Shown here: positions 6,984-50,620 of the stretch, in pieces
Layout of the letters: each line of letters opens with the position of its first letter
How positions within the stretch are numbered: the stretch's first letter is position 1
Source: Candidatus Bathyarchaeota archaeon
GTDB taxonomy: Archaea; Thermoproteota; Bathyarchaeia; 40CM-2-53-6
Length of the DNA stretch: 64,000 nucleotides
NCBI GenBank assembly: GCA_005888745.1
Contig: VBBS01000027.1
Coordinates: 55,045-119,044 of the forward strand
Direction: 5' to 3'
The notes under the pieces: generated by a model
What the model saw: only the letters and a program-made list of their open reading frames with translations
Database searches by the model: none
What the model was told of the DNA's origin: nothing
Translations under genes and position numbers: made by a program

Positions 6984-7580
6984 TTAACTGTCTTGCTTGG
7001 CTGTCTCGACCGGTAGTGGAGCGTCTTCCCCAAGCTGGAGTACTTTCTTCAGTTCTTTTTTCATGAGTGATGGGTCATGGTTGAGATTGAAGTAGTCTGC
7101 GAACGTTGTAGTCGTCCTTAGCATTCTGGTTCTTCCGATCCTCTCGTCATTAATCAGGTCCATGTCCTTCAGCTGTTTCACATGGCCGTAGGCCAGTTTA
7201 CCGCGAACCCGTACCACGTAGGACTGGGTGACAGGCTGCTTCAGAGCTATGAATGATAACGTCCGAAGGGGTCCTGGTGTTAGAAGCGGTCTGTTCGCCA
7301 GTTTTCGAACGTGCTTAGCGAATTCTGCCTTTAGCTGCATGACAAAGCGTCCGTCGGGAAGTTCCACGACTTGAATCGGACTACTGGCGGTTTTGTAACG
7401 TTCAGAAACCGCCGTTGCGATTCCGCGTATCTTGTCCTCTGATCTAGCGCCTACGACAGACCCGATCATCTTCAGGTCTAGTGGTCTTCCGGATACGTAC
7501 AGTGCAGCCTCGCAGAGCTGCTGCTGTAGGTCAGCAGTTTTCTGCTGAGCTGTGTTAGTCGAAACTTGTGTTTCCGTCGT
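6984..7580 (-). CDS. scpB: segregation and condensation protein B (ScpB)
   Basis: Winged-helix ScpB pattern. The family N-terminal motif (EAALYVSGRPLDL) is encoded upstream of the first ATG (7469). The only start-like codons in the open 38-codon extension are ACG 7580 and ACG 7577. The start is uncertain. Confidence 0.75.
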   Translation of the reverse strand, partial: TTETQVSTNTAQQKTADLQQQLCEAALYVSGRPLDLKMIGSVVGARSEDKIRGIATAVSERYKTASSPIQVVELPDGRFVMQLKAEFAKHVRKLANRPLLTPGPLRTLSFIALKQPVTQSYVVRVRGKLAYGHVKQLKDMDLINDERIGRTRMLRTTTTFADYFNLNHDPSLMKKELKKVLQLGEDAPLPVETAKQDS

Positions 7581-12589: not shown

Positions 12590-13389
12590 GTTTGTTCTTT
12601 GACCTCCGGTTTGTTGAGTTGGGCTTGGGCGAGCGCTCTTGCGCAGGAGCAGCCGTCTCTCGTGTCAGGTATCTTGCCTATAGCTTCTATGAGAATCTTG
12701 TTCAGGATCTGGCTGGTCTCTTTTCCCTTCTCTTCCACCTCTCTTGCTGAGAGTGTTCTCTGGAGGCCGGCTGCCATGTTAGAGACGAAGCTGATTGATG
12801 CATAGCATATCTGGAGCTCTCTGGCGAGGAAGGCTTCTGGGGCGCCTGTCATTCCCACGATCGCGCCGCCGAGTGTCTTGAGCATGCGTATCTCCGCTGG
12901 TGTCTCGTATCTTGGGCCTTCGGTGGCGGCCATTACGATGTCGTTTCGAATGGTTTTCTTGCTGTCAGAGCCGGCGCTGGTTATCGCGTTTCTCAGGGTT
13001 GGGCAGTATGGTTCGGATACGTCGACATGTGTGACCGGGGAGTCGTCGTAGAAGGTTCCTTGTCGAGATTTCGTAAAATCGATCAGGTCTGAGGGTACGA
13101 CTATCTCTCCTGGTGTGAGAGTGGTGTCTATTGCACCGACGGCGTTTGTAGCGATTATTCTTTCAACCCCGAGACTTTTGAGTCCCCATATGTTGGCTCG
13201 ATAATTTACCTTGTGGGGTGGAGCGGTGTGTCCTTCGCCGTGTCGTGGTAGATAGACTGCTTCTCGTCCTTTAACTTGTCCGATGGTCAGGGTTGGGGTT
13301 GGACCGTATGGTGTGCCGAGGATCTTTTCTTCGCCTTTGACGAGGGATTTGACTCCTGAGCCACCGATTATTGCGATGGGCGGTTTCAT
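12583..13389 (-). CDS. mtnP: S-methyl-5'-thioadenosine phosphorylase
   Basis: IAIIGGSG, LPRHGEGH and TNAVGA motifs of the PNP/MTAP family. The Cys-rich C-terminal tail (CSC...C) resembles that of thermostable archaeal MTAPII. Confidence 0.85.
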   Translation of the reverse strand: MKPPIAIIGGSGVKSLVKGEEKILGTPYGPTPTLTIGQVKGREAVYLPRHGEGHTAPPHKVNYRANIWGLKSLGVERIIATNAVGAIDTTLTPGEIVVPSDLIDFTKSRQGTFYDDSPVTHVDVSEPYCPTLRNAITSAGSDSKKTIRNDIVMAATEGPRYETPAEIRMLKTLGGAIVGMTGAPEAFLARELQICYASISFVSNMAAGLQRTLSAREVEEKGKETSQILNKILIEAIGKIPDTRDGCSCARALAQAQLNKPEVKEQTC

Positions 13390-18032: not shown

Positions 18033-18356
18033 GTGAAAAACCCGGGTCACGTCATCATCTGGCCATTCCACATAGACAGTACGAAGACCAGGGGCCAGGG
18101 AAGAAAACTTCCGATAGCGCGAGCGATAAAACAGCCAAACCTCAGAGAAATTGTGCAGGCGGCGACAATCCTAGGTTATGTTCCGGAACCGAAGGAAAAA
18201 TCGGCGATGCCCAGCCTTCACTGGGAGAAGGCAGGAAATGTTACGGTGAAGAAGACGGCTCCCAAGGTTACAATGCTGAAATCGATTGCCGGGGAGATCG
18301 TGAAGATACGGCAAAAAGAGGCCCAGGCTGTCGAGCCGAAGAAAGACCGACGATAG
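18033..18356 (+). CDS. srp19: signal recognition particle protein SRP19
   Basis: IIWPFHIDSTKTRGQGRKLP...L...A..LGY pattern of SRP19. GTG start. Confidence 0.85.
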   Translation: MKNPGHVIIWPFHIDSTKTRGQGRKLPIARAIKQPNLREIVQAATILGYVPEPKEKSAMPSLHWEKAGNVTVKKTAPKVTMLKSIAGEIVKIRQKEAQAVEPKKDRR

Positions 18357-31042: not shown

Positions 31043-31226
31043 TTAGTACGACAACGACCTGAACCGAGCCAAGTAGAAAGGAATTGTGTCGAGACTATCT
31101 GACCAACTCGACCAACCCCCGCCACCACGAGAGCTGATCGAATATGGCCGAGTGGTTTAGAATCTCCAAACCAAATATAGCGGTTGGAAGGCTGACCTGA
31201 GTTTCTATACTCGGAGAGAATTACAA

Positions 31227-32735
31227 GTGGAGTTGCGTGAGAATGATGTTAAAGTCCTGAGAACTCTCCGGGACGCGGGCGGAATCGCTTCAGCTGAAGA
31301 TATAATCCGGAAAGCCGGCATAGTCGACGCGGCTGTTGCCCGCGCGTCACTCACACTGTCAGAACTAGGCCTAGTCAAGGAACAGACAACAAGGACCACC
31401 GAAATATTTTGTACCGAGGAAGGACATGATTATCTGGCTAATGGACTACCCGAGCGAAGGGTCGCCACGGTAGTTCACGATGCCGGGGGAAAACTCTCGG
31501 TCAGCGAAGCGGTCCAGCAAGCGGGTCTGCCACAAGACTTTGTCTCAATAGTCACAGGCTGGATTGCCCGCAAACGCTGGGGAAAGATCGAGAAAACAAG
31601 TTCAGGCAATATTCTACTGATCTCGAAAAACCCGCCCAAAGACGAAGATGAAGAGGTTCTCGAGAGAATTGGCCATGTCAGCATTCCAATAGAAGAATTG
31701 CCGAGCAACCTGAGACAAGCAGCCGATAGACTCCTCAAGAGAAACATCCTGGCCTCGAAGGAACGAGTACAGCGGAAACTACAGATCACCCCTCAAGGGT
31801 TGGACGCGATTCCGGCCCAAGCATCTGTCGATGAGATTAGCAGTCTAACAAGCGAGATGATTCTCTCTGGAGACTGGAAGAGAGTCCACCTTCGATCGTA
31901 CAATGTTTCTTCACCTGTCCCTTCGCTCAGTCCTGGAAAGTATCATCCTTACTTGCGATTCTTGCGGAGGGTCAAACGGAAGCTTGTTGCGCTCGGGTTC
32001 AGAGAGGCTGTCGGACCCCTGGTCGAAACCGCCTTCATCAACGACGACTGCCTCTACATGCCGCAAGATCATCCAGCGAGAGAAATCCACGATCTCTACT
32101 ACCTGAAACACCCGTCCAAAGCGAGCCTGGAATCATGGAAGGAAATCGTGGAGAAGGTAGCGCAGACCCACGAGAACGGCTGGAAGACAGGGTCCACCGG
32201 ATGGGGCTACAAGTACTCGAGAGAAGAAGCCTCCAAACTAGTCCTTCGGAGCCACGGCACCGCTCTAAGTGTCCGGTCAATGATTTCCAAGGACCTTCAG
32301 ATTCCAGGCAAATACTTTGCTATCGCGAGGTGCTTCCGGCCCGAACTCCTCGACAGAACTCACTTGACAGAATTCAACCAGGCGGAAGGGATCGTTCTCG
32401 ATCCCAGCCTCAACCTACGCAATCTCCTCGGGGTCTTGGAGATGTTCGCTCGCGAGGTCGCGGGGGCCGACAGGGTCCGTTTCAAACCCGACTACTTTCC
32501 ATTTACAGAACCCAGTGTCGAGTTGCAAGCCTACAAGGAAGGATACGGATGGATGGAGTTCGGCGGCAGCGGAATATTTAGACCCGAAGTCACAGAACCC
32601 CTCGGCATCAAAGTACCCGTGATCGCGTGGGGGCTCGGAATAGACAGGCTGTTCATGATGAACCAGCAGATCCAGGATATCAGACAGCTCTTCACAACTG
32701 ACCTCGAATGGATAAGGCAACAGAAGGTCGGCTAG
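31227..32735 (+). CDS. pheS: phenylalanine--tRNA ligase alpha subunit
   Basis: Class II motifs (FRPE..D.THLTEFNQAEG, GSGIFRPEV) and the long N-terminal winged-helix extension typical of archaeal/eukaryal PheRS alpha. Confidence 0.9.
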   Translation: MELRENDVKVLRTLRDAGGIASAEDIIRKAGIVDAAVARASLTLSELGLVKEQTTRTTEIFCTEEGHDYLANGLPERRVATVVHDAGGKLSVSEAVQQAGLPQDFVSIVTGWIARKRWGKIEKTSSGNILLISKNPPKDEDEEVLERIGHVSIPIEELPSNLRQAADRLLKRNILASKERVQRKLQITPQGLDAIPAQASVDEISSLTSEMILSGDWKRVHLRSYNVSSPVPSLSPGKYHPYLRFLRRVKRKLVALGFREAVGPLVETAFINDDCLYMPQDHPAREIHDLYYLKHPSKASLESWKEIVEKVAQTHENGWKTGSTGWGYKYSREEASKLVLRSHGTALSVRSMISKDLQIPGKYFAIARCFRPELLDRTHLTEFNQAEGIVLDPSLNLRNLLGVLEMFAREVAGADRVRFKPDYFPFTEPSVELQAYKEGYGWMEFGGSGIFRPEVTEPLGIKVPVIAWGLGIDRLFMMNQQIQDIRQLFTTDLEWIRQQKVG

Positions 32736-32736
32736 A

Positions 32737-34422
32737 ACGCCCTCAGTCCAATTCTCTCTGGCGGATCTGGAAGATCTCCTTGGACAGAAGGTTCCCCGAG
32801 ACGAAGACGGGCTCAACCAGCTCCTCGCCTACGTCAAGGGCGACGTGGAATCCCTCGACGAACAGAATGACAGCGTCAGCATCGAGGTCAAAGACAGCAA
32901 CCATCCCGACATCTGGTCGGTAGAGGGAATCGCACGCGCTCTCCGCACTCATCTCGGTCTTACCAAGCCCAAGGCTCCAATCCTTACCGGAAAATCCGGT
33001 CTGAGAGTCACAATAGATCGTAGACTAGGTGCAGTCCGGCCTTTCATCGCAACCTCCATCGTGAGAAACGTCAAGCCAAGCGAGGACGCCCTGAAGAGCT
33101 GGATAAGCCTACAAGAAAAAATGGACCTCACGTACGGTAGAAAGAGAAAACGTGCCTCAATCGGGTTCTACCAAGCCGACCTGATCAAGTCACCTCTTCG
33201 CTACACTGTTGGCAATCCTGAAGACACAGGGTTCGTCCCCCTAGGCTCAACAGAGAAGATGTCTCTCCGAGAGATTGTAGAGAAGCATCCTAAGGGAATT
33301 GAGTATGGAGGAACAATCTCATCTTTCAAAGACTGGCCGCTCCTGGAGAACGGCGACGGCAAGATTCTCTCTCTTCCACCAATCATCAACTCCAACGATC
33401 TGGGCAAGATCGCCTCAGATACGAAGAACATCCTGGTAGAGGTCACAGGGACGAATATCGAAACCGTAGGCAATACGCTGAAGATAGTCGTAGCCGCTCT
33501 CGCCGAAAGAGGAGGCAAGATCTACAGCTGTACTCAAACCTACACGGACAAGTACTCCAAGCCGATAACTACGCCAGACCTGAAATCCAGCATCAAGGAA
33601 TTATCAGTCAACTATGCTAACAGACTTCTTGGATCCACGTTCAAACCAGCAGAGATGATACGATCCTTAGTGAGAGCCGGCCATCCTGCTCGACAGGTGA
33701 GTAAGGACATCTTGCGCGTGGAGAGCCTCTGCTACCGTATCGACATCATGCATCAAGTTGACCTCGTCGAGGATCTCGCGATCGCACTTGACATTAACAG
33801 GCTAGATCCTGAATGGCCGAGAATCTGGACTCTCGGGGGACTAGCGCCTGAAACAGATAGACACGAGACTCTTGCCGAAATCATGATCGGGCTAGGATAC
33901 CAGGAGCTTCTGACCTACAGTCTGACATCCCCTGAAGTCTTCGTTGACAAGATGGGCATAAAACGCGAAAAATACGCGGAGCTGATGAATCCTAAGATGT
34001 CAACCCATACCGCATTGAGAACCTGGCTTCTACCCAGCATTCTCAATTTGCTCAAGGACAATACTCATGTCGATTATCCTCAGAGAGTCTTCGAGATCGG
34101 ACCTTGCGTAGTTGTCAAAGAAAATGGCGAAGGTCAGACGGAAACTCGATACAAGATCGCTGCGGCGACAGTTCACACAGCAGCCGGCTTCACTGAGATT
34201 CGATCTTGCCTCGACACACTCCTCGCAAGCATCGGGGTCAAGTTCGAGGTCGTGCCCACGGTTCAACCGAGCTTTCTCGAGGGACGCACTGGGGAGGTGA
34301 TGTCAGGGCAAGAGCGACTAGGAGTAGTTGGAGAGTTGCACCCGAAGATAATCCGTGCTTGGAGTCTCAGCCTCCCCGTCGCAGCTTTCGAACTAGAGAT
34401 TCCACCAATGGAGGCTGGTTAG
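32737..34422 (+). CDS. pheT: phenylalanine--tRNA ligase beta subunit
   Basis: Archaeal PheT architecture. The conserved N-terminus PSVQFSLADLEDLLG is encoded upstream of the first canonical start (GTG 32845). The only start-like codon after the in-frame stop (32713-15) is ACG 32737. Confidence 0.85.
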   Translation, partial: TPSVQFSLADLEDLLGQKVPRDEDGLNQLLAYVKGDVESLDEQNDSVSIEVKDSNHPDIWSVEGIARALRTHLGLTKPKAPILTGKSGLRVTIDRRLGAVRPFIATSIVRNVKPSEDALKSWISLQEKMDLTYGRKRKRASIGFYQADLIKSPLRYTVGNPEDTGFVPLGSTEKMSLREIVEKHPKGIEYGGTISSFKDWPLLENGDGKILSLPPIINSNDLGKIASDTKNILVEVTGTNIETVGNTLKIVVAALAERGGKIYSCTQTYTDKYSKPITTPDLKSSIKELSVNYANRLLGSTFKPAEMIRSLVRAGHPARQVSKDILRVESLCYRIDIMHQVDLVEDLAIALDINRLDPEWPRIWTLGGLAPETDRHETLAEIMIGLGYQELLTYSLTSPEVFVDKMGIKREKYAELMNPKMSTHTALRTWLLPSILNLLKDNTHVDYPQRVFEIGPCVVVKENGEGQTETRYKIAAATVHTAAGFTEIRSCLDTLLASIGVKFEVVPTVQPSFLEGRTGEVMSGQERLGVVGELHPKIIRAWSLSLPVAAFELEIPPMEAG

Positions 34423-43170: not shown

Positions 43171-43665
43171 TTGAGTAGGCCTTCAAAGCAGGTAAGCACT
43201 TCCAAGACCACTCTCTCCAGTCAGATGATGCCTGTGGACGCCAATCCGATGGGAAACGTGCACGGGGGCACAATTCTCAAACTTGTCGATGTCGCCGCCG
43301 GAGTCACGGCCCTGCGACATGCGAGAACTATTGTGGTCACCGCAAGCATCGACCGTATGGACTTTTACCATCCAGTCTATGTCGGCAACCTTCTCAACTT
43401 CAAGGCCTCAGTCAACTACGCTGGAACAACCTCGATGGAAGTCGGAGTAAGGATAGAAGCTGAGGACCTGAAGACTGGTAGAATAACACACACCGGCTCA
43501 TCCTACCTCACCTATGTTGCTATAGATGAGAACGGACAACCAGTCGAGATTCCCGACGTCATCCCGGAGACACTTGACGAAAAACGACGCTGGAGAGAAG
43601 GAAAAAAGCGAAGGGCCGAACGCCTCAAGATCCTACAAGATCGAAGGAGCAAGGGCAAGGCCTAG
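43171..43665 (+). CDS. acyl-CoA thioesterase (hotdog fold, YciA/ACOT-like)
   Basis: ANPMGNVHGGTILKLVD...TASIDRMDF..PV.VG....A.V.Y.G.TSMEVGV. Confidence 0.8.
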   Translation: MSRPSKQVSTSKTTLSSQMMPVDANPMGNVHGGTILKLVDVAAGVTALRHARTIVVTASIDRMDFYHPVYVGNLLNFKASVNYAGTTSMEVGVRIEAEDLKTGRITHTGSSYLTYVAIDENGQPVEIPDVIPETLDEKRRWREGKKRRAERLKILQDRRSKGKA

Positions 43666-43677
43666 GGTCGACAAAGA

Positions 43678-44562
43678 ACGAAAGTCGCAATTGTAGGGTT
43701 CGGCATGATGGGCCGGCAGATAGCCCAAGTATTCGCCCAAAATGGCCACGAGGTCGAGGCCACGGATGAGGATCAGCAAGCACTGAAGGCGGGGCTCAAC
43801 GAAATAGCAGACGGGCCCTACGGATTGCACGCGGCTGTTTCAAAAGGAAAACTGGCTGCAGAGCAAGCTCACAGGACTCTAGCAGCCATCAAGACAAGAC
43901 CCGAGCTAGCGGATGTTTGCAAGAACTCGACTCTTGTGATCGAGGCAGCCTTCGAGGAGCTGCAACTCAAACAGAATCTGTTTCACAGAATTGAATCTGC
44001 TGCGCCACCAACTGCGATCATAGCATCAAACACTTCAACCTTGAGCCTGGACAAGATCACCCAAAGAATCTCAAGGAAGGACAGAACGATTGGAATGCAC
44101 TTCTTTAATCCAGCCCAGCTCACAAAACTCGTCGAGATCGTCCGAGGAACGTCGACATCACCTGAAACACTAGAGAAAGCGTCCCAAATCGTCCGGGAGA
44201 TCGGTAAGACCCCTATCCTCGCCCAAGATGAGCCTGGTTTCATCGCCAACCGTCTCGGACTCACCCTCTACATGGAGGCTTCAAGACTGCTAGAGGATCG
44301 TGTCGCAAGTCTCTCTGACATCGACACGTGCATGAGACTCGGATACAACCATCCAATGGGACCCTTCGAACTAGCCGACTTCGTCGGACTTGACACCAGA
44401 CTTCGGAATCTAGAATCACTCTACAAGTCAACGAATGAAAGTAAATGGATACCACCTCAGATTCTAAGAGAGATGGTCCAACAAGGATACCTCGGCGACC
44501 CTGCTAGAAAGAAGACGAGCAAGGGCGGATACTACGAGTATCTCCGGATAAAGCGAGGATAA
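43678..44562 (+). CDS. 3-hydroxyacyl-CoA (3-hydroxybutyryl-CoA) dehydrogenase
   Basis: The HADH family core is present (NTSTLSL, HFFNPA). The Rossmann beta1-GxGxxG element KVAIVGFGMMG starts upstream of the first ATG (43705). ACG 43678 directly precedes KVAIVG. Confidence 0.85.
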   Translation, partial: TKVAIVGFGMMGRQIAQVFAQNGHEVEATDEDQQALKAGLNEIADGPYGLHAAVSKGKLAAEQAHRTLAAIKTRPELADVCKNSTLVIEAAFEELQLKQNLFHRIESAAPPTAIIASNTSTLSLDKITQRISRKDRTIGMHFFNPAQLTKLVEIVRGTSTSPETLEKASQIVREIGKTPILAQDEPGFIANRLGLTLYMEASRLLEDRVASLSDIDTCMRLGYNHPMGPFELADFVGLDTRLRNLESLYKSTNESKWIPPQILREMVQQGYLGDPARKKTSKGGYYEYLRIKRG

Positions 44563-47667: not shown

Positions 47668-47985
47668 TTGAAGATCACGAAGATCATAGTCCTGTTCGGA
47701 CAACCGAAAGACCCCGAACTATTCGATGAGCAATACTGGAAAGACCATGTTCCAATAGCGAAGGCGATGCCAGGTTTGAAGAAATACACAGTTCACAAGA
47801 TCGTTGGGGCACCACGAGGAGAACCGGCATACTACCAGGTTGTCGAACTGGAATTCGAGAATATGGACAGCCTGAAGAAAGCATTGGAAAGCCCGGCCGG
47901 ACGCGAATCAGGCCGGCACGGCGTAAAGATTGCTACTGGTGGCATAACTTTCCTTTACGCGGAATCAAGAGAAGCGATGCCGTAG
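47668..47985 (+). CDS. EthD-domain protein (TIGR02118-like)
   Basis: 105 aa: KIIVLFGQPKDPELFDEQYW..HVPIAKAMPGLKKYTV. Confidence 0.6.
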   Translation: MKITKIIVLFGQPKDPELFDEQYWKDHVPIAKAMPGLKKYTVHKIVGAPRGEPAYYQVVELEFENMDSLKKALESPAGRESGRHGVKIATGGITFLYAESREAMP

Positions 47986-48077
47986 AACAACAACAGTCTA
48001 GCCCGGTTCCATCTGACATATTCCTCGGAAAACGTTCTTCTAATCAGACCCGTCAGTTCTAGGACAGGAGCGGGGAA

Positions 48078-49235
48078 GTCTTAGGCCGCATCGGAATCGT
48101 TGGAGTTGGACATTCAAAGTTCGGAAAAAGGAGCGACGCCTCCCTCCGAGAGCTAGCATTCGAAGCGTACAGTTCCGCCCTAGATGACGCCGACATCGAC
48201 TCTTCAAAAATAGACGGTTCAATAGTTTGCTCCGCCACTCACTACGACAAGCAACGATCGCCTGCAGGTGTTGTTGCGGAATATCTCGGACTCAATCCCC
48301 AACCAACATTCAACGTTGAGGCAGCCTGCGCCTCCAGCGCTGTTGGCCTTCGGACCGCGTGGGCGCTTGTCTCATCAAAACTTCATGATGTGGTGGCCGT
48401 TGTGGGGGTGCAGAAGATGACCGAACTCTCCTCGGAGGAGATCCAGGAGCTCATGGGCAGAGCAGGGGACGTCATGTGGGAGTCTCCCTTCGGAACAACA
48501 ATGCCCGCATACTACGCCTCCTATGCTAACGCCCACATGGCCAAGTACGGAACTACAGAGGAACAAATGGCGCTCGTGTCGGTGAAGAACCGAAAATACG
48601 GATCCAAGAATCCTAACGCCATGTTTCAAAAACCCATCCAATTGGAAGAGGTCCTAAAATCGCGAATGGTATCTTATCCTCTAAAACTATACGATTGCTG
48701 CGCCAATGCTGACGGGGCGGCATGTCTGCTCATTACTAGTGCCGAAAAAGCAAAGAAAATTTCTGATAGACCCGTATGGATCTCCGGGCTTGGCCTGGCT
48801 TCGAGTCCCATGTCGCTTGCTGGAAGAAAAGGTCCATTGACGAGTTTCGATGCCACAAGAAATGCGGCGAGAACGGCATACGAAATGGCCAATATCAAAC
48901 CACACGACGTACATGTGGCGGAGGTTCATGACTCTTTCTCGGTAACAGAAATCATCAATTATGAAGACCTCGGATTCGCACGACCTGGAAGGGGTGCTAA
49001 GCTTCTGGAAAACCAAGGCACGGAGCTCGGCGGGAGAATCCCCGTCAACATCGACGGAGGCTTGATTTCCAAAGGCCATCCAGTCGGAGCCACAGGCGCG
49101 TCCCAGATCTTCGCATTGGTCAAACAACTACGGGGGGAAGCGGGTAGCGTTCAGGTCGACGGCGCTAAGATTGGTCTCGCACAGAACATAGGGGGAATAG
49201 GAATGTACTGCTCCGTTACGATCTTGCGCTCATGA
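48078..49235 (+). CDS. thiolase (SCP-x / archaeal acetyl-CoA C-acetyltransferase type); start codon unresolved
   Basis: The frame is open from 48063. The N-terminus RIGIVGVGHSKFGKR and the catalytic-Cys region NVEAACASS lie upstream of the first canonical start (GTG 48390). The C-terminal GHPVGATGA is also present. The start given is approximate (GTC 48078, TTA 48081 or ATC 48090). Confidence 0.85.
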   Translation, partial: VLGRIGIVGVGHSKFGKRSDASLRELAFEAYSSALDDADIDSSKIDGSIVCSATHYDKQRSPAGVVAEYLGLNPQPTFNVEAACASSAVGLRTAWALVSSKLHDVVAVVGVQKMTELSSEEIQELMGRAGDVMWESPFGTTMPAYYASYANAHMAKYGTTEEQMALVSVKNRKYGSKNPNAMFQKPIQLEEVLKSRMVSYPLKLYDCCANADGAACLLITSAEKAKKISDRPVWISGLGLASSPMSLAGRKGPLTSFDATRNAARTAYEMANIKPHDVHVAEVHDSFSVTEIINYEDLGFARPGRGAKLLENQGTELGGRIPVNIDGGLISKGHPVGATGASQIFALVKQLRGEAGSVQVDGAKIGLAQNIGGIGMYCSVTILRS

Positions 49236-49281: not shown

Positions 49282-50208
49282 TTGCAGGTGGACATTCAAG
49301 AGTTGACCCCCATTCAAAGCTTCGGCAGAAGAATTCGAGCCTATGATAAAGCCACACGCCTCGCAAAGGAAGGTCGCCCTGTCACTGAAATCTCGAAAGA
49401 GACGGGAACGCCTGACGCTACCATCAGGGGATGGCTCGTAAACGGTCGAAAACCTTGGACCCGCTGCGAACTCTTCAAACCAACGTACTCTGATCAATTA
49501 ACATATGTTATCGGTGTTTACATGGGAGACGGCTCGATTTCCCGATGGAGAAATCGTTTTTTACTGCGATTAGATGTCAAAGACAAAGAATTCGCCGATA
49601 AGTTTTCTTCAACATGCGCACATGTTCTGGGTAGGAAACCATATTCTGTGAGGCATGTCAGGGATAGGGACACATACGAGACTATCATTTCAAACGCGTC
49701 TTTCTGCAAGTTCCTCAACCGAGGCCTCACCCACCTGGATCGGTATGTACGGGAGCATCCCTCTGGCTTTGTTAGAGGTTTAGCTGATAGCGATGAGTGC
49801 CCCACTGTGACAACAACAAAAAAGCGGGGCAAACCCTGGTTCTTCGTCCAAGTTGTAGTAGCAACATCCAAGAGCATACGCTTACTGAGCTATACTCGGA
49901 CGATCCTGAGGGAATGCCTCGGACTCAAAGCGACGCTAGTGTACAAAGGCAAGCCAAGACCCAGTGTGTTCAAGAACAAGTTGCTCCGTTCAAGAAAGAG
50001 GGTCTTTGACCTTAGGATATCGCGCTTTGGTGACGTGAAACGATTCTCCCGGGTTGTTGGTTTCGAATTGGCTCGGAAACAAGAGAAGCTTGCCGCTGCT
50101 ATCTTCGTCCGTGAAGGATTTGGTTCTGGTCAGGATGCGGTGAAAGAGTGGACCCGTCGCTGGGAGCATGGCACCACTGAGTGGATTCTCAAGAAAGGAG
50201 TGGACTAG
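49282..50208 (+). CDS. LAGLIDADG homing-endonuclease-like protein with N-terminal HTH
   Basis: Motifs YVIGVYMGDGS and FVRGLADSDEC. The N-terminal EGRPVTEISKETGTPDATIRGWL is HTH-like. It sits between the thiolase and DUF35 genes. Confidence 0.7.
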   Translation: MQVDIQELTPIQSFGRRIRAYDKATRLAKEGRPVTEISKETGTPDATIRGWLVNGRKPWTRCELFKPTYSDQLTYVIGVYMGDGSISRWRNRFLLRLDVKDKEFADKFSSTCAHVLGRKPYSVRHVRDRDTYETIISNASFCKFLNRGLTHLDRYVREHPSGFVRGLADSDECPTVTTTKKRGKPWFFVQVVVATSKSIRLLSYTRTILRECLGLKATLVYKGKPRPSVFKNKLLRSRKRVFDLRISRFGDVKRFSRVVGFELARKQEKLAAAIFVREGFGSGQDAVKEWTRRWEHGTTEWILKKGVD

Positions 50209-50212
50209 GCAA

Positions 50213-50620
50213 TTGGGTTTTGAAAAGTTCGGGAGATTTGGTTATGTCTCCCAGACCAAGATCAACCCCTTGTTATCCTATCTGGAAAAGGGGCAGATTG
50301 CCGCGACCAAGTGCAAGAAGTGCGGGAGAACGTACTTTCCACCAAGAGCCGAGTGCCTGGACTGCCGCCACAGTACGATAGAATGGGTTGTAGTGGACGG
50401 GAGGAGCAAACTGATCACATTCACCCAGGTTTTCTTCGCACCACCCGCCTTTCAGCACGAAACCCCGTACATGCTAGGACTTGCGGAACTCACGAATGGG
50501 CTTCGCGTATTCGCGCCTGTCAGTCCTGCAGTGGAAAAGGAGCAACTCAAACCGGGCGTCGAGCTGACCTTGAAGGTTGCAAAAGGCTCACGTGACAACT
50601 TGTACTACTGGCTCGAATGA
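50213..50620 (+). CDS. DUF35 OB-fold/zinc-ribbon protein (thiolase partner)
   Basis: CKKCGRTYFPPRAECLDC zinc ribbon followed by an OB fold. TTG 50213 lies 5 nt after the endonuclease stop. The track ATG 50168 would overlap that gene. Confidence 0.8.
   Translation: MGFEKFGRFGYVSQTKINPLLSYLEKGQIAATKCKKCGRTYFPPRAECLDCRHSTIEWVVVDGRSKLITFTQVFFAPPAFQHETPYMLGLAELTNGLRVFAPVSPAVEKEQLKPGVELTLKVAKGSRDNLYYWLE

Follow-up and report, generated by a model that had tools for sequence, protein, structure and literature searches.

A thiolase gene with TTA at its start-codon position in soil Bathyarchaeia, a lineage that appears to tolerate ACG and CTG as sole start codons of conserved genes

How is a protein initiated when its reading frame offers no ordinary start codon until long after the active site? 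This question is raised by a thiolase gene in a stretch of 64,000 nt of Candidatus Bathyarchaeota archaeon DNA (contig VBBS01000027.1, positions 55,045-119,044 of the forward strand, GCA_005888745.1; hereafter the window). The frame, on the plus strand, is closed on its 5' side by an in-frame TAG (48060..48062) and is open from 48063 to 49235 over 390 codons, with TGA at 49233-49235. Its first ATG, GTG or TTG is the GTG at 48390..48392, which is codon 110 and has 109 codons before it. A product from this GTG would be 281 amino acids long and would lack the catalytic cysteine, because the TGC codon of this nucleophile (48327..48329), within the orthologously invariant motif N-V-E-A-A-C-A-S-S, lies 5' of all canonical starts. 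Candidate codons in the leader are GTC 48078, TTA 48081 and ATC 48090 (with another ATC at 48096), while reading the leader in frame revealed no ACG. A preliminary description of this DNA had placed the TAG, an AGGAG motif, these three candidates and GTG 48390 at the coordinates that we also find on re-reading. It had also claimed that both the N-terminus and the catalytic cysteine precede every standard start, which is borne out by the frame itself and by Pfam, where Thiolase_N begins at residue 12 of the open frame and thus places a conserved domain 5' of every canonical start.

When every open frame of 150 codons or more in the window is considered, no plausible gene has a longer start-less leader than these 109 codons; the frames with longer leaders are shadow frames overlapping real genes and were discarded. 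We estimate that a random stretch of 109 codons would lack a canonical start with a chance of about 0.4% (given roughly 3 canonical codons among 61 sense codons), but we consider the conserved domain upstream, rather than this figure, to be the decisive point.

The position at which the protein should begin is indicated by its relatives. A protein search returned thousands of them, and the close ones are nearly all 384 amino acids long and begin M-[G/S]-R-I-G-I-V-G-V-G-H-S-K-F-G; the window thiolase is 82-98% identical to these 384-amino-acid orthologues. The orthologous methionine aligns with TTA 48081..48083 (plus strand), at a column where relatives carry ATG, TTG, GTG, CTG or ACG. Upstream of this codon lies AGGAGC (48066..48071, plus strand), a box resembling a Shine-Dalgarno (SD) sequence and separated from TTA 48081 by 9 nt (48072-48080). 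The closest relatives keep this box as AGGAGC, AGGAAGC or GGGAGC at equal spacing regardless of their start codon. In the DNA of the closest relatives from metagenomes, the start column is occupied by ATG and preceded by a conserved AGGAGC. The nearest species representative, locus L004 (88% amino acid identity), has the leader TAGTTTAGGAGCGGGGAAGTT[TTG]GGCCGT, and the window leader TAGGACAGGAGCGGGGAAGTC[TTA]GGCCGC is almost identical to it with unchanged SD spacing. Judged by this alignment, the TTA of the window is one G-to-A transition away from a TTG start like that of L004.

Public annotation has chosen differently. The sole entry that is 100% identical to the window gene is an NCBI product of 381 amino acids (P0001) that begins M-G-I-V-G and is thus called from ATC 48090..48092 (plus strand), the nearest near-cognate codon with a single mismatch, three codons past TTA. 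This ATC lies 18 nt (48072-48089) past the AGGAGC box, as opposed to the 9-nt spacing at all orthologous starts. TTA mismatches AUG at its first and third positions, whereas ATC, ACG and CTG each have a single mismatch. Of the candidate initiators GTC, TTA and ATC proposed in the preliminary description, orthology thus singles out TTA 48081, and ATC 48090 is the one that NCBI adopted. The predicted N-terminus is (M)GRIGIVGVGHSKFGKRSD for a start at TTA 48081 and (M)GIVGVGHSK... for one at ATC 48090.

Apart from its start, nothing about the gene is out of the ordinary. The coding sequence from TTA (48081..49235, plus strand) comprises 384 codons plus TGA and is intact according to Pfam, its orthologues and the ratio of nonsynonymous to synonymous substitution rates (dN/dS). 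We found no frameshift, premature stop or truncation in these 384 codons, which are uninterrupted and collinear with the orthologues. Pfam detects Thiolase_C_1 (4.6e-42), Thiolase_N (1e-16) and Thiolase_C (3.6e-12), and the C-terminal active-site loop S-K-G-H-P-V-G-A-T-G is present and invariant in orthologues. As an archaeal-type thiolase the gene is ordinary and displays every family feature tested; its initiation is the unusual part. Between the window gene and its relatives or nearest allele, dN/dS is 0.03-0.06.

The TTA itself is not a peculiarity of one assembly. We located independent copies of the locus by exact look-up of a neighbouring protein of 333 amino acids, and TTA is present in five of five independent assemblies (L170-L174) from different samples, runs and pipelines (ENA ERZ28573795, ERZ27285877 and ERZ28573596; Logan SRR5436853 and SRR7042386). 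Two of them differ from the window by a few other single-nucleotide polymorphisms (SNPs), and L173 is a diverged TTA haplotype with 9 differences in the thiolase coding sequence, all 9 synonymous and none nonsynonymous, where about 7 nonsynonymous ones would be expected under neutrality. The preliminary description had named a corrected base call yielding TTG or GTG at 48078-48083 as the observation that would overturn its reading, and the five assemblies do not bear this out. In all three assemblies with the complete gene it has been called as a truncated thiolase of 272 amino acids, and the other two calls end at the contig edge. A collection of 5.8 billion proteins holds no 384-amino-acid product 100% identical to that of the window, look-ups of the 381-amino-acid NCBI product and of the 281-amino-acid product from GTG 48390 gave no matches, and a scan of JGI metagenomes did not find the same strain but only relatives of 79-95% identity. 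From these patterns the gene looks selectively maintained, on an allele that is young and may have undergone recombination.

Is such a start an isolated accident or part of a wider habit of the lineage? We compared the thiolase start column over 103 orthologous loci of soil Bathyarchaeia, comprising species-representative genomes and metagenome contigs, and found ATG at 72, TTG at 14, CTG at 12, ACG at 3 and GTG and TTA at one each. The CTG alleles comprise 11 contigs (from metagenome-assembled genomes [MAGs], ENA and JGI) that carry it behind AGGAGCGTTTGAATTT, with L124 standing separate, and ACG is found in L084 and, in another lineage, in L158 and L168, so that CTG and ACG alleles span at least four leader contexts. 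In these alleles an in-frame stop lies 8-21 codons before the start column, and a canonical start is lacking for 24-89 codons after it, well into the domain (except for L124, with a GTG at +3); gene callers truncate their products to 360 or 379 amino acids. The CTG alleles have diverged among themselves to a synonymous divergence (dS) of 1.36 at a dN/dS of 0.05-0.10, and two ACG alleles are separated by a dS of 0.63 at a dN/dS of 0.06. Because such high dS is combined with a dN/dS of 0.05-0.10, the CTG and ACG thiolases are, as judged from their sequence evolution, working genes that have long remained functional without a canonical start. Bacterial thiolase homologues from the same search all begin with ATG or GTG.

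Two thiolase loci that share 80-82% identity with the Bathyarchaeia gene stand on contigs with other labels, L020 (DASPWZ010000005.1, labelled Candidatus Dormiibacterota) and L022 (JAJPJY010000153.1, labelled "bacterium"). The leaders of their start regions match those of contigs from the clade such as L153 and L161 exactly or almost exactly, and both are probably mis-binned archaeal contigs.

Non-canonical starts are not confined to the thiolase. For an orthologue-column survey we used the conserved genes of the fetched loci (26 families with 1031 gene instances) and counted a start as non-canonical when the consensus start column held such a codon and the 4 codons on either side of it offered no canonical start. 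This applied to 50 of the 1031 instances (4.8%), with 18 ACG, 10 CTG and 1 TTA among distinct sequences plus a few doubtful columns, and to 0 of 144 instances from bacterial loci in the same pipeline (Fisher p=0.003). These counts, taken around two genomic neighbourhoods, also answer how many conserved genes lack a canonical start, which the preliminary description had recommended to establish. Among distinct gene sequences of the clade, start codons are ATG (52%), TTG (34%), GTG (8%), ACG (2.4%) and CTG (1.3%). Several gene families use TTG exclusively (loci L001-L024 and L084-L169), and the overall TTG share is far above the 3-13% of model bacteria (PMC4705826). Every validated non-canonical start of the clade (ACG, CTG and TTA) can be reached from a canonical one by a single transition, and ATA, which is equally accessible from ATG by a transition, is almost absent from validated start columns.

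Several apparent cases were set aside. In clusters 18 and 19, with GTA or ATA columns, the start column was inferred at a place over 100 codons inside the open frame, and cluster 16, with a GTA/ATA column as well, consists of one instance only and has an alternative in-frame start upstream. The codons CCA, ACC, TCC and TCA in the EthD, 333-amino-acid and enoyl-CoA hydratase clusters reflect alignment wobble around a canonical start 1-4 codons upstream. In the window, SRP19 (about 18033-18355) has a normal GTG at 18033, and the conservation ahead of the GTG of PheS (31161-32735) is its SD region, its start being canonical.

About four of the roughly 60 genes in the window lack a canonical start, and besides the thiolase three carry ACG at the orthologous start column. 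PheRS-beta (32737..34422, plus strand) is essential and has ACG 32737-32739 at its start column, where it follows the PheS stop (TAG 32733-32735) by 1 nt. Its full-length orthologues begin M-P-S-V-Q-F-S-L, and the ACG is located exactly at that methionine, giving a predicted N-terminus of (M)PSVQFSLADLEDLLGQK. ACG occurs at this place in four lineages (the window, L181, L175-L180 and L182), 2-7 codons past an in-frame stop (only two codons past it in the three lineages other than that of the window), and in public databases the PheRS-beta proteins of the clade are cut short to ragged lengths of 524-553, 453 or 432 amino acids in place of 561. The 3-hydroxyacyl-CoA dehydrogenase (HBD) gene (43678..44562, plus strand) was placed by its orthologue column and Pfam and has ACG 43678-43680 at the start column, 4 sense codons after an in-frame stop, with (M)KVAIVGFGMMGR as predicted N-terminus. 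Of 51 HBD orthologues including that of the window, 30 have ATG in this column and 19, whose leaders have diverged, have ACG. Position 1 of the Pfam 3HCDH_N profile aligns with the residue that follows the ACG, and the next ATG (+9) sits inside V-A-I-V-G-F-G-M-M-G, the glycine-rich nucleotide-binding motif of the Rossmann fold. The stop TAG of the thioesterase (4HBT) gene upstream (43663-43680 region, plus strand) lies in frame with HBD and 12 nt before its ACG, an arrangement that suggests translational coupling. We also considered a readthrough fusion of these two proteins, since their frames are continuous through the TAG in the window, but relatives do not preserve this arrangement of frames and the idea was dropped.

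The third case is ScpB, encoded on the minus strand (6984..7577) with ACG 7577-7575 at the start column and sharing about 20 nt with the end of ScpA (ScpA stop TAA 7557-7555). The Pfam SMC_ScpB domain begins 16 residues before the first ATG of this gene. ScpB orthologues begin M-E-A-Q-V-S, and the predicted N-terminus is of the type (M)EAQVSTNTAQQK. The closest relative, L183, reads ACG ATG GAA where the window reads ACG ACG GAA, and relatives in general carry ATG ATG or (ACG) ATG at this place. Outside the window, the MetAP gene of L181 (on a contig of 327 kb) has ACG 12738-12740 where the window has ATG (35584) and represents a second essential gene of the clade with an ACG start. CTG stands at the start column of the DUF35 gene of L160 (8308-8727), where the next canonical start follows only 72 codons later, and at that of EthD in one lineage (L016, L132, L133, L137 and L139). 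A purine-rich context, ..GA-ACG, is common to several of the ACG starts.

Taken together, we favor a functional thiolase with non-canonical initiation and, from sequence comparison, give this reading a probability of about 0.6. For the lineage, relaxed start-codon usage is supported by comparative sequence evidence because non-canonical starts recur (4.8% versus 0 of 144) and because the ACG and CTG genes evolve under purifying selection. The suggestion of relaxed start usage in the preliminary description therefore holds for organism and clade, with ACG and CTG at the methionine column of conserved genes of which two are essential, and less so for the TTA, a codon two mismatches from AUG and unique to one population. 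The more far-reaching idea is that the whole clade has heritably lowered start-codon stringency or edits its mRNAs at start sites, with ACG and CUG as regular sole starts of essential genes (PheRS-beta and MetAP) and even UUA initiating the thiolase here; we see about equal odds for and against it.

Under relaxed initiation, start-codon identity would be only weakly constrained in the soil Bathyarchaeia clade, and the small ribosomal subunit would be placed by an SD box or, at genes inside operons, by the ribosome terminating upstream. For the thiolase the positioning element would be the AGGAGC box, while at PheRS-beta, HBD and ScpB it would perhaps be the stop codon that closes the upstream gene, 1-12 nt away or overlapping. 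An initiation machinery of low stringency would then accept the initiator tRNA on near-cognate codons, and the very high TTG usage fits with generally low stringency. CUG and ACG also rank among the more efficient near-cognates in systems of the eIF1 type, and aIF1, the archaeal counterpart, is the factor known to discriminate between start codons (PMC4705826, PMC7531240, PMC8211752). In such a background, one G-to-A transition may have turned an ancestral thiolase TTG into TTA, which became fixed in a natural soil population; this change was probably mildly deleterious or nearly neutral, with some initiation left at 48081. We infer that translation begins with methionine at TTA 48081 as positioned by the SD box, or with lower probability at ATC 48090, and would yield enough enzyme to keep the gene under selection, and in the same way we infer what may lower the stringency: altered aIF1 or aIF2, a changed or differently modified initiator tRNA, or initiation defined purely by position through SD box or termination. 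A tRNA scan found no tRNA genes in the 64-kb window.

Several observations weigh against this favored reading. The TTA is a singleton among the 103 orthologous starts and belongs to one population only, and its two mismatches to AUG set it apart from all other validated non-canonical starts of the clade (ACG and CTG), which have one. In Escherichia coli, codons other than AUG, GUG, UUG, CUG and AUH reach only 0.1-1% of the efficiency of AUG (bioRxiv 10.1101/063800). Furthermore, the TTA haplotypes are very close to each other (0-9 differences per 1152 nt), so that they put selection since the mutation to a weak test, and recombination with functional alleles could be the source of the 9 synonymous differences. 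The clade statistics, finally, cover loci around two genomic neighbourhoods rather than whole genomes.

The same features make a very young null allele the alternative that needs most discussion, in which TTG-to-TTA abolished initiation and was fixed too recently for further lesions to accumulate while paralogous thiolases cover the function. A singleton codon with two mismatches and nearly identical, hence young, haplotypes speak for it, and paralogues do exist in the clade, with at least one related MAG harboring two thiolase loci (L014 and L015). Yet all 384 codons of the open reading frame are intact, neither the SD box nor residues 2-3 have changed, TTA is fixed in five samples, the haplotype differences are exclusively synonymous against the neutral expectation, and this clade has demonstrably kept genes with non-canonical starts in working order over long times. 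We consider a null allele unlikely, though it deserves to be taken seriously. The preliminary description had offered a start-codon-dead pseudogene as its own fallback, which the intact frame, the dN/dS of 0.03-0.06 and the 9 synonymous-only differences disfavor, even if their power for the time since the mutation is low.

Alternatively, base editing of mRNAs might rescue the starts, editing being another possibility raised in the preliminary description, by C-to-U conversion of ACG to AUG and of CUG to UUG and by A-to-I conversion that lets UUA be read as UUG. It would account for the fact that all validated non-canonical starts are one transition from a canonical one with ATA almost absent, and for the ..GA-ACG context shared by several ACG starts. 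However, ACG and CTG on the one hand and TTA on the other would require two different chemistries, CUG and ACG are just the codons preferred by near-cognate initiation in systems of the eIF1/aIF1 type (PMC4705826), and protein alignments, a weak check, have no internal positions that seem to need editing. Archaeal mRNA editing was also not found in the literature searched, which left out most subscription journals, and altogether we regard editing as very improbable. A sequencing or assembly error at 48083 with TTG as true codon could invoke the nearest relative, whose TTG differs by a single base, but it is effectively refuted by TTA in five assemblies, two with other SNPs and one with a diverged haplotype; the 381-amino-acid NCBI product likewise implies absence of a canonical start. 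Hardly any credence is left for an N-terminus supplied from upstream by readthrough of TAG 48060 or by a frameshift. The frame 5' of this TAG is indeed open across the intergenic region, but relatives have in-frame stops 0-39 codons upstream (6-13 in the nearest) at positions that are not conserved, the intergenic stretch shows no conservation at the protein level, and the orthologous proteins all begin at the TTA column. A frameshift from TTG 48100, the sole canonical start nearby that is out of frame, would run into TAG 48154 after 18 codons.

The thiolase belongs to a cluster resembling fatty-acid or butyrate beta-oxidation that comprises a thioesterase, 3-hydroxyacyl-CoA dehydrogenase, two enoyl-CoA hydratases, EthD, the thiolase and DUF35. 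The thiolase start does not have the geometry of translational coupling, since the EthD stop at 47983-47985 lies 95 nt before TTA 48081 and the gene has its own SD box. Its DUF35 partner (50144..50620) clusters with orthologues carrying PF12172 and PF01796 (zf-ChsH2/OB_ChsH2_C). Between thiolase and DUF35, and overlapping the start of the latter, lies an open reading frame of 308 amino acids with a LAGLIDADG_3 domain (49282..50208, plus strand). Relatives have 267-310 amino acids or short open reading frames only at this place, and more LAGLIDADG frames occur nearby (L084 and L175-L182). They look like a mobile family of free-standing genes akin to homing endonucleases.

If relaxed initiation is confirmed, these archaea would offer a natural lineage for studying how initiation machinery of the archaeal and eukaryotic type sets start-codon stringency, and the TTA would extend the range to a codon with two mismatches. 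Gene callers limited to ATG, GTG and TTG would systematically truncate genes of the clade, and public databases hold many thiolases of 272 amino acids, PheRS-beta proteins of 524-553 and 453 amino acids and shortened dehydrogenases from it. Such truncated calls distort annotation, domain statistics, the assessed quality of MAGs and metabolic inference for an abundant group of soil archaea.

Among known systems, the gene itself is closest to the archaeal thiolase-DUF35 family of the acetoacetyl-CoA thiolase/HMG-CoA synthase complex, with which it shares the domains, the catalytic cysteine, the G-H-P-x-G-A-T-G motif and a DUF35 gene downstream. It differs in being part of a beta-oxidation-like cluster instead of neighbouring HMG-CoA synthase, in the inserted LAGLIDADG frame and in its TTA start. 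Three of the ACG genes recall termination-reinitiation coupling, because the distances at PheRS-beta (1 nt) and HBD (12 nt) and the overlap at ScpB share the geometry of coupled pairs; the pairs described in the accessible portions of two reports (PMC6728339, PMC12548453) have canonical NTG starts, and non-canonical ones are not mentioned in those portions. Plant organelles likewise have genomic ACG at conserved methionines of essential genes, which C-to-U editing converts to AUG, and the same reaction would turn CTG into UUG. TTA, by contrast, is beyond repair by C-to-U editing, and mRNA editing was not found for archaea in the literature searched.

Rare bacterial starts, like AUU in infC or the CUG and AUH codons of translation table 11, provide another parallel in that a conserved gene relies on a start other than AUG, GUG or UUG. 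infC is an isolated bacterial case and is autoregulated via IF3. The alternatives of table 11 let annotation cope with such genes, as when NCBI used ATC 48090 for the window thiolase. In bacteria, non-canonical starts reach 1-2% of the efficiency of AUG or less (bioRxiv 10.1101/063800). Unlike these isolated bacterial genes, the clade has non-canonical codons at about 4% of start columns, with ACG as the main codon, and both ACG and TTA fall outside table 11. For archaea, reviews describe the use of AUG, GUG and UUG and the rejection of other codons by aIF1 (PMC4705826, PMC7531240, PMC8211752), and because of this restriction the pattern of the clade departs from the known archaeal rule. Ribosome profiling of Haloferax volcanii did detect near-cognate initiation sites but set them aside (PMC7261190). 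We found no prior description of ACG or CUG starts of main open reading frames in archaea or Bathyarchaeota in the literature searched, with most subscription journals outside the search. Non-AUG initiation is known from eukaryotes, from infC with its AUU and from rare CUG and AUH starts, and the literature searched yielded no archaeal lineage with ACG or CUG as conserved sole start of housekeeping genes.

The most instructive comparison is that with near-cognate initiation in eukaryotes, where CUG and ACG are also preferred and the fidelity factors have homologues in archaeal aIF1, aIF1A and aIF2 (PMC4705826, PMC7531240). Eukaryotic near-cognates are policed by eIF1 and eIF5, are found by scanning and mostly give rise to low-level isoforms or upstream open reading frames, and the TTA of the thiolase, unlike them, has more than a single mismatch. 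In contrast to the eukaryotic situation, ACG and CTG in this clade are the sole possible starts of housekeeping and essential genes, are positioned by SD boxes or stop codons and are conserved across species.

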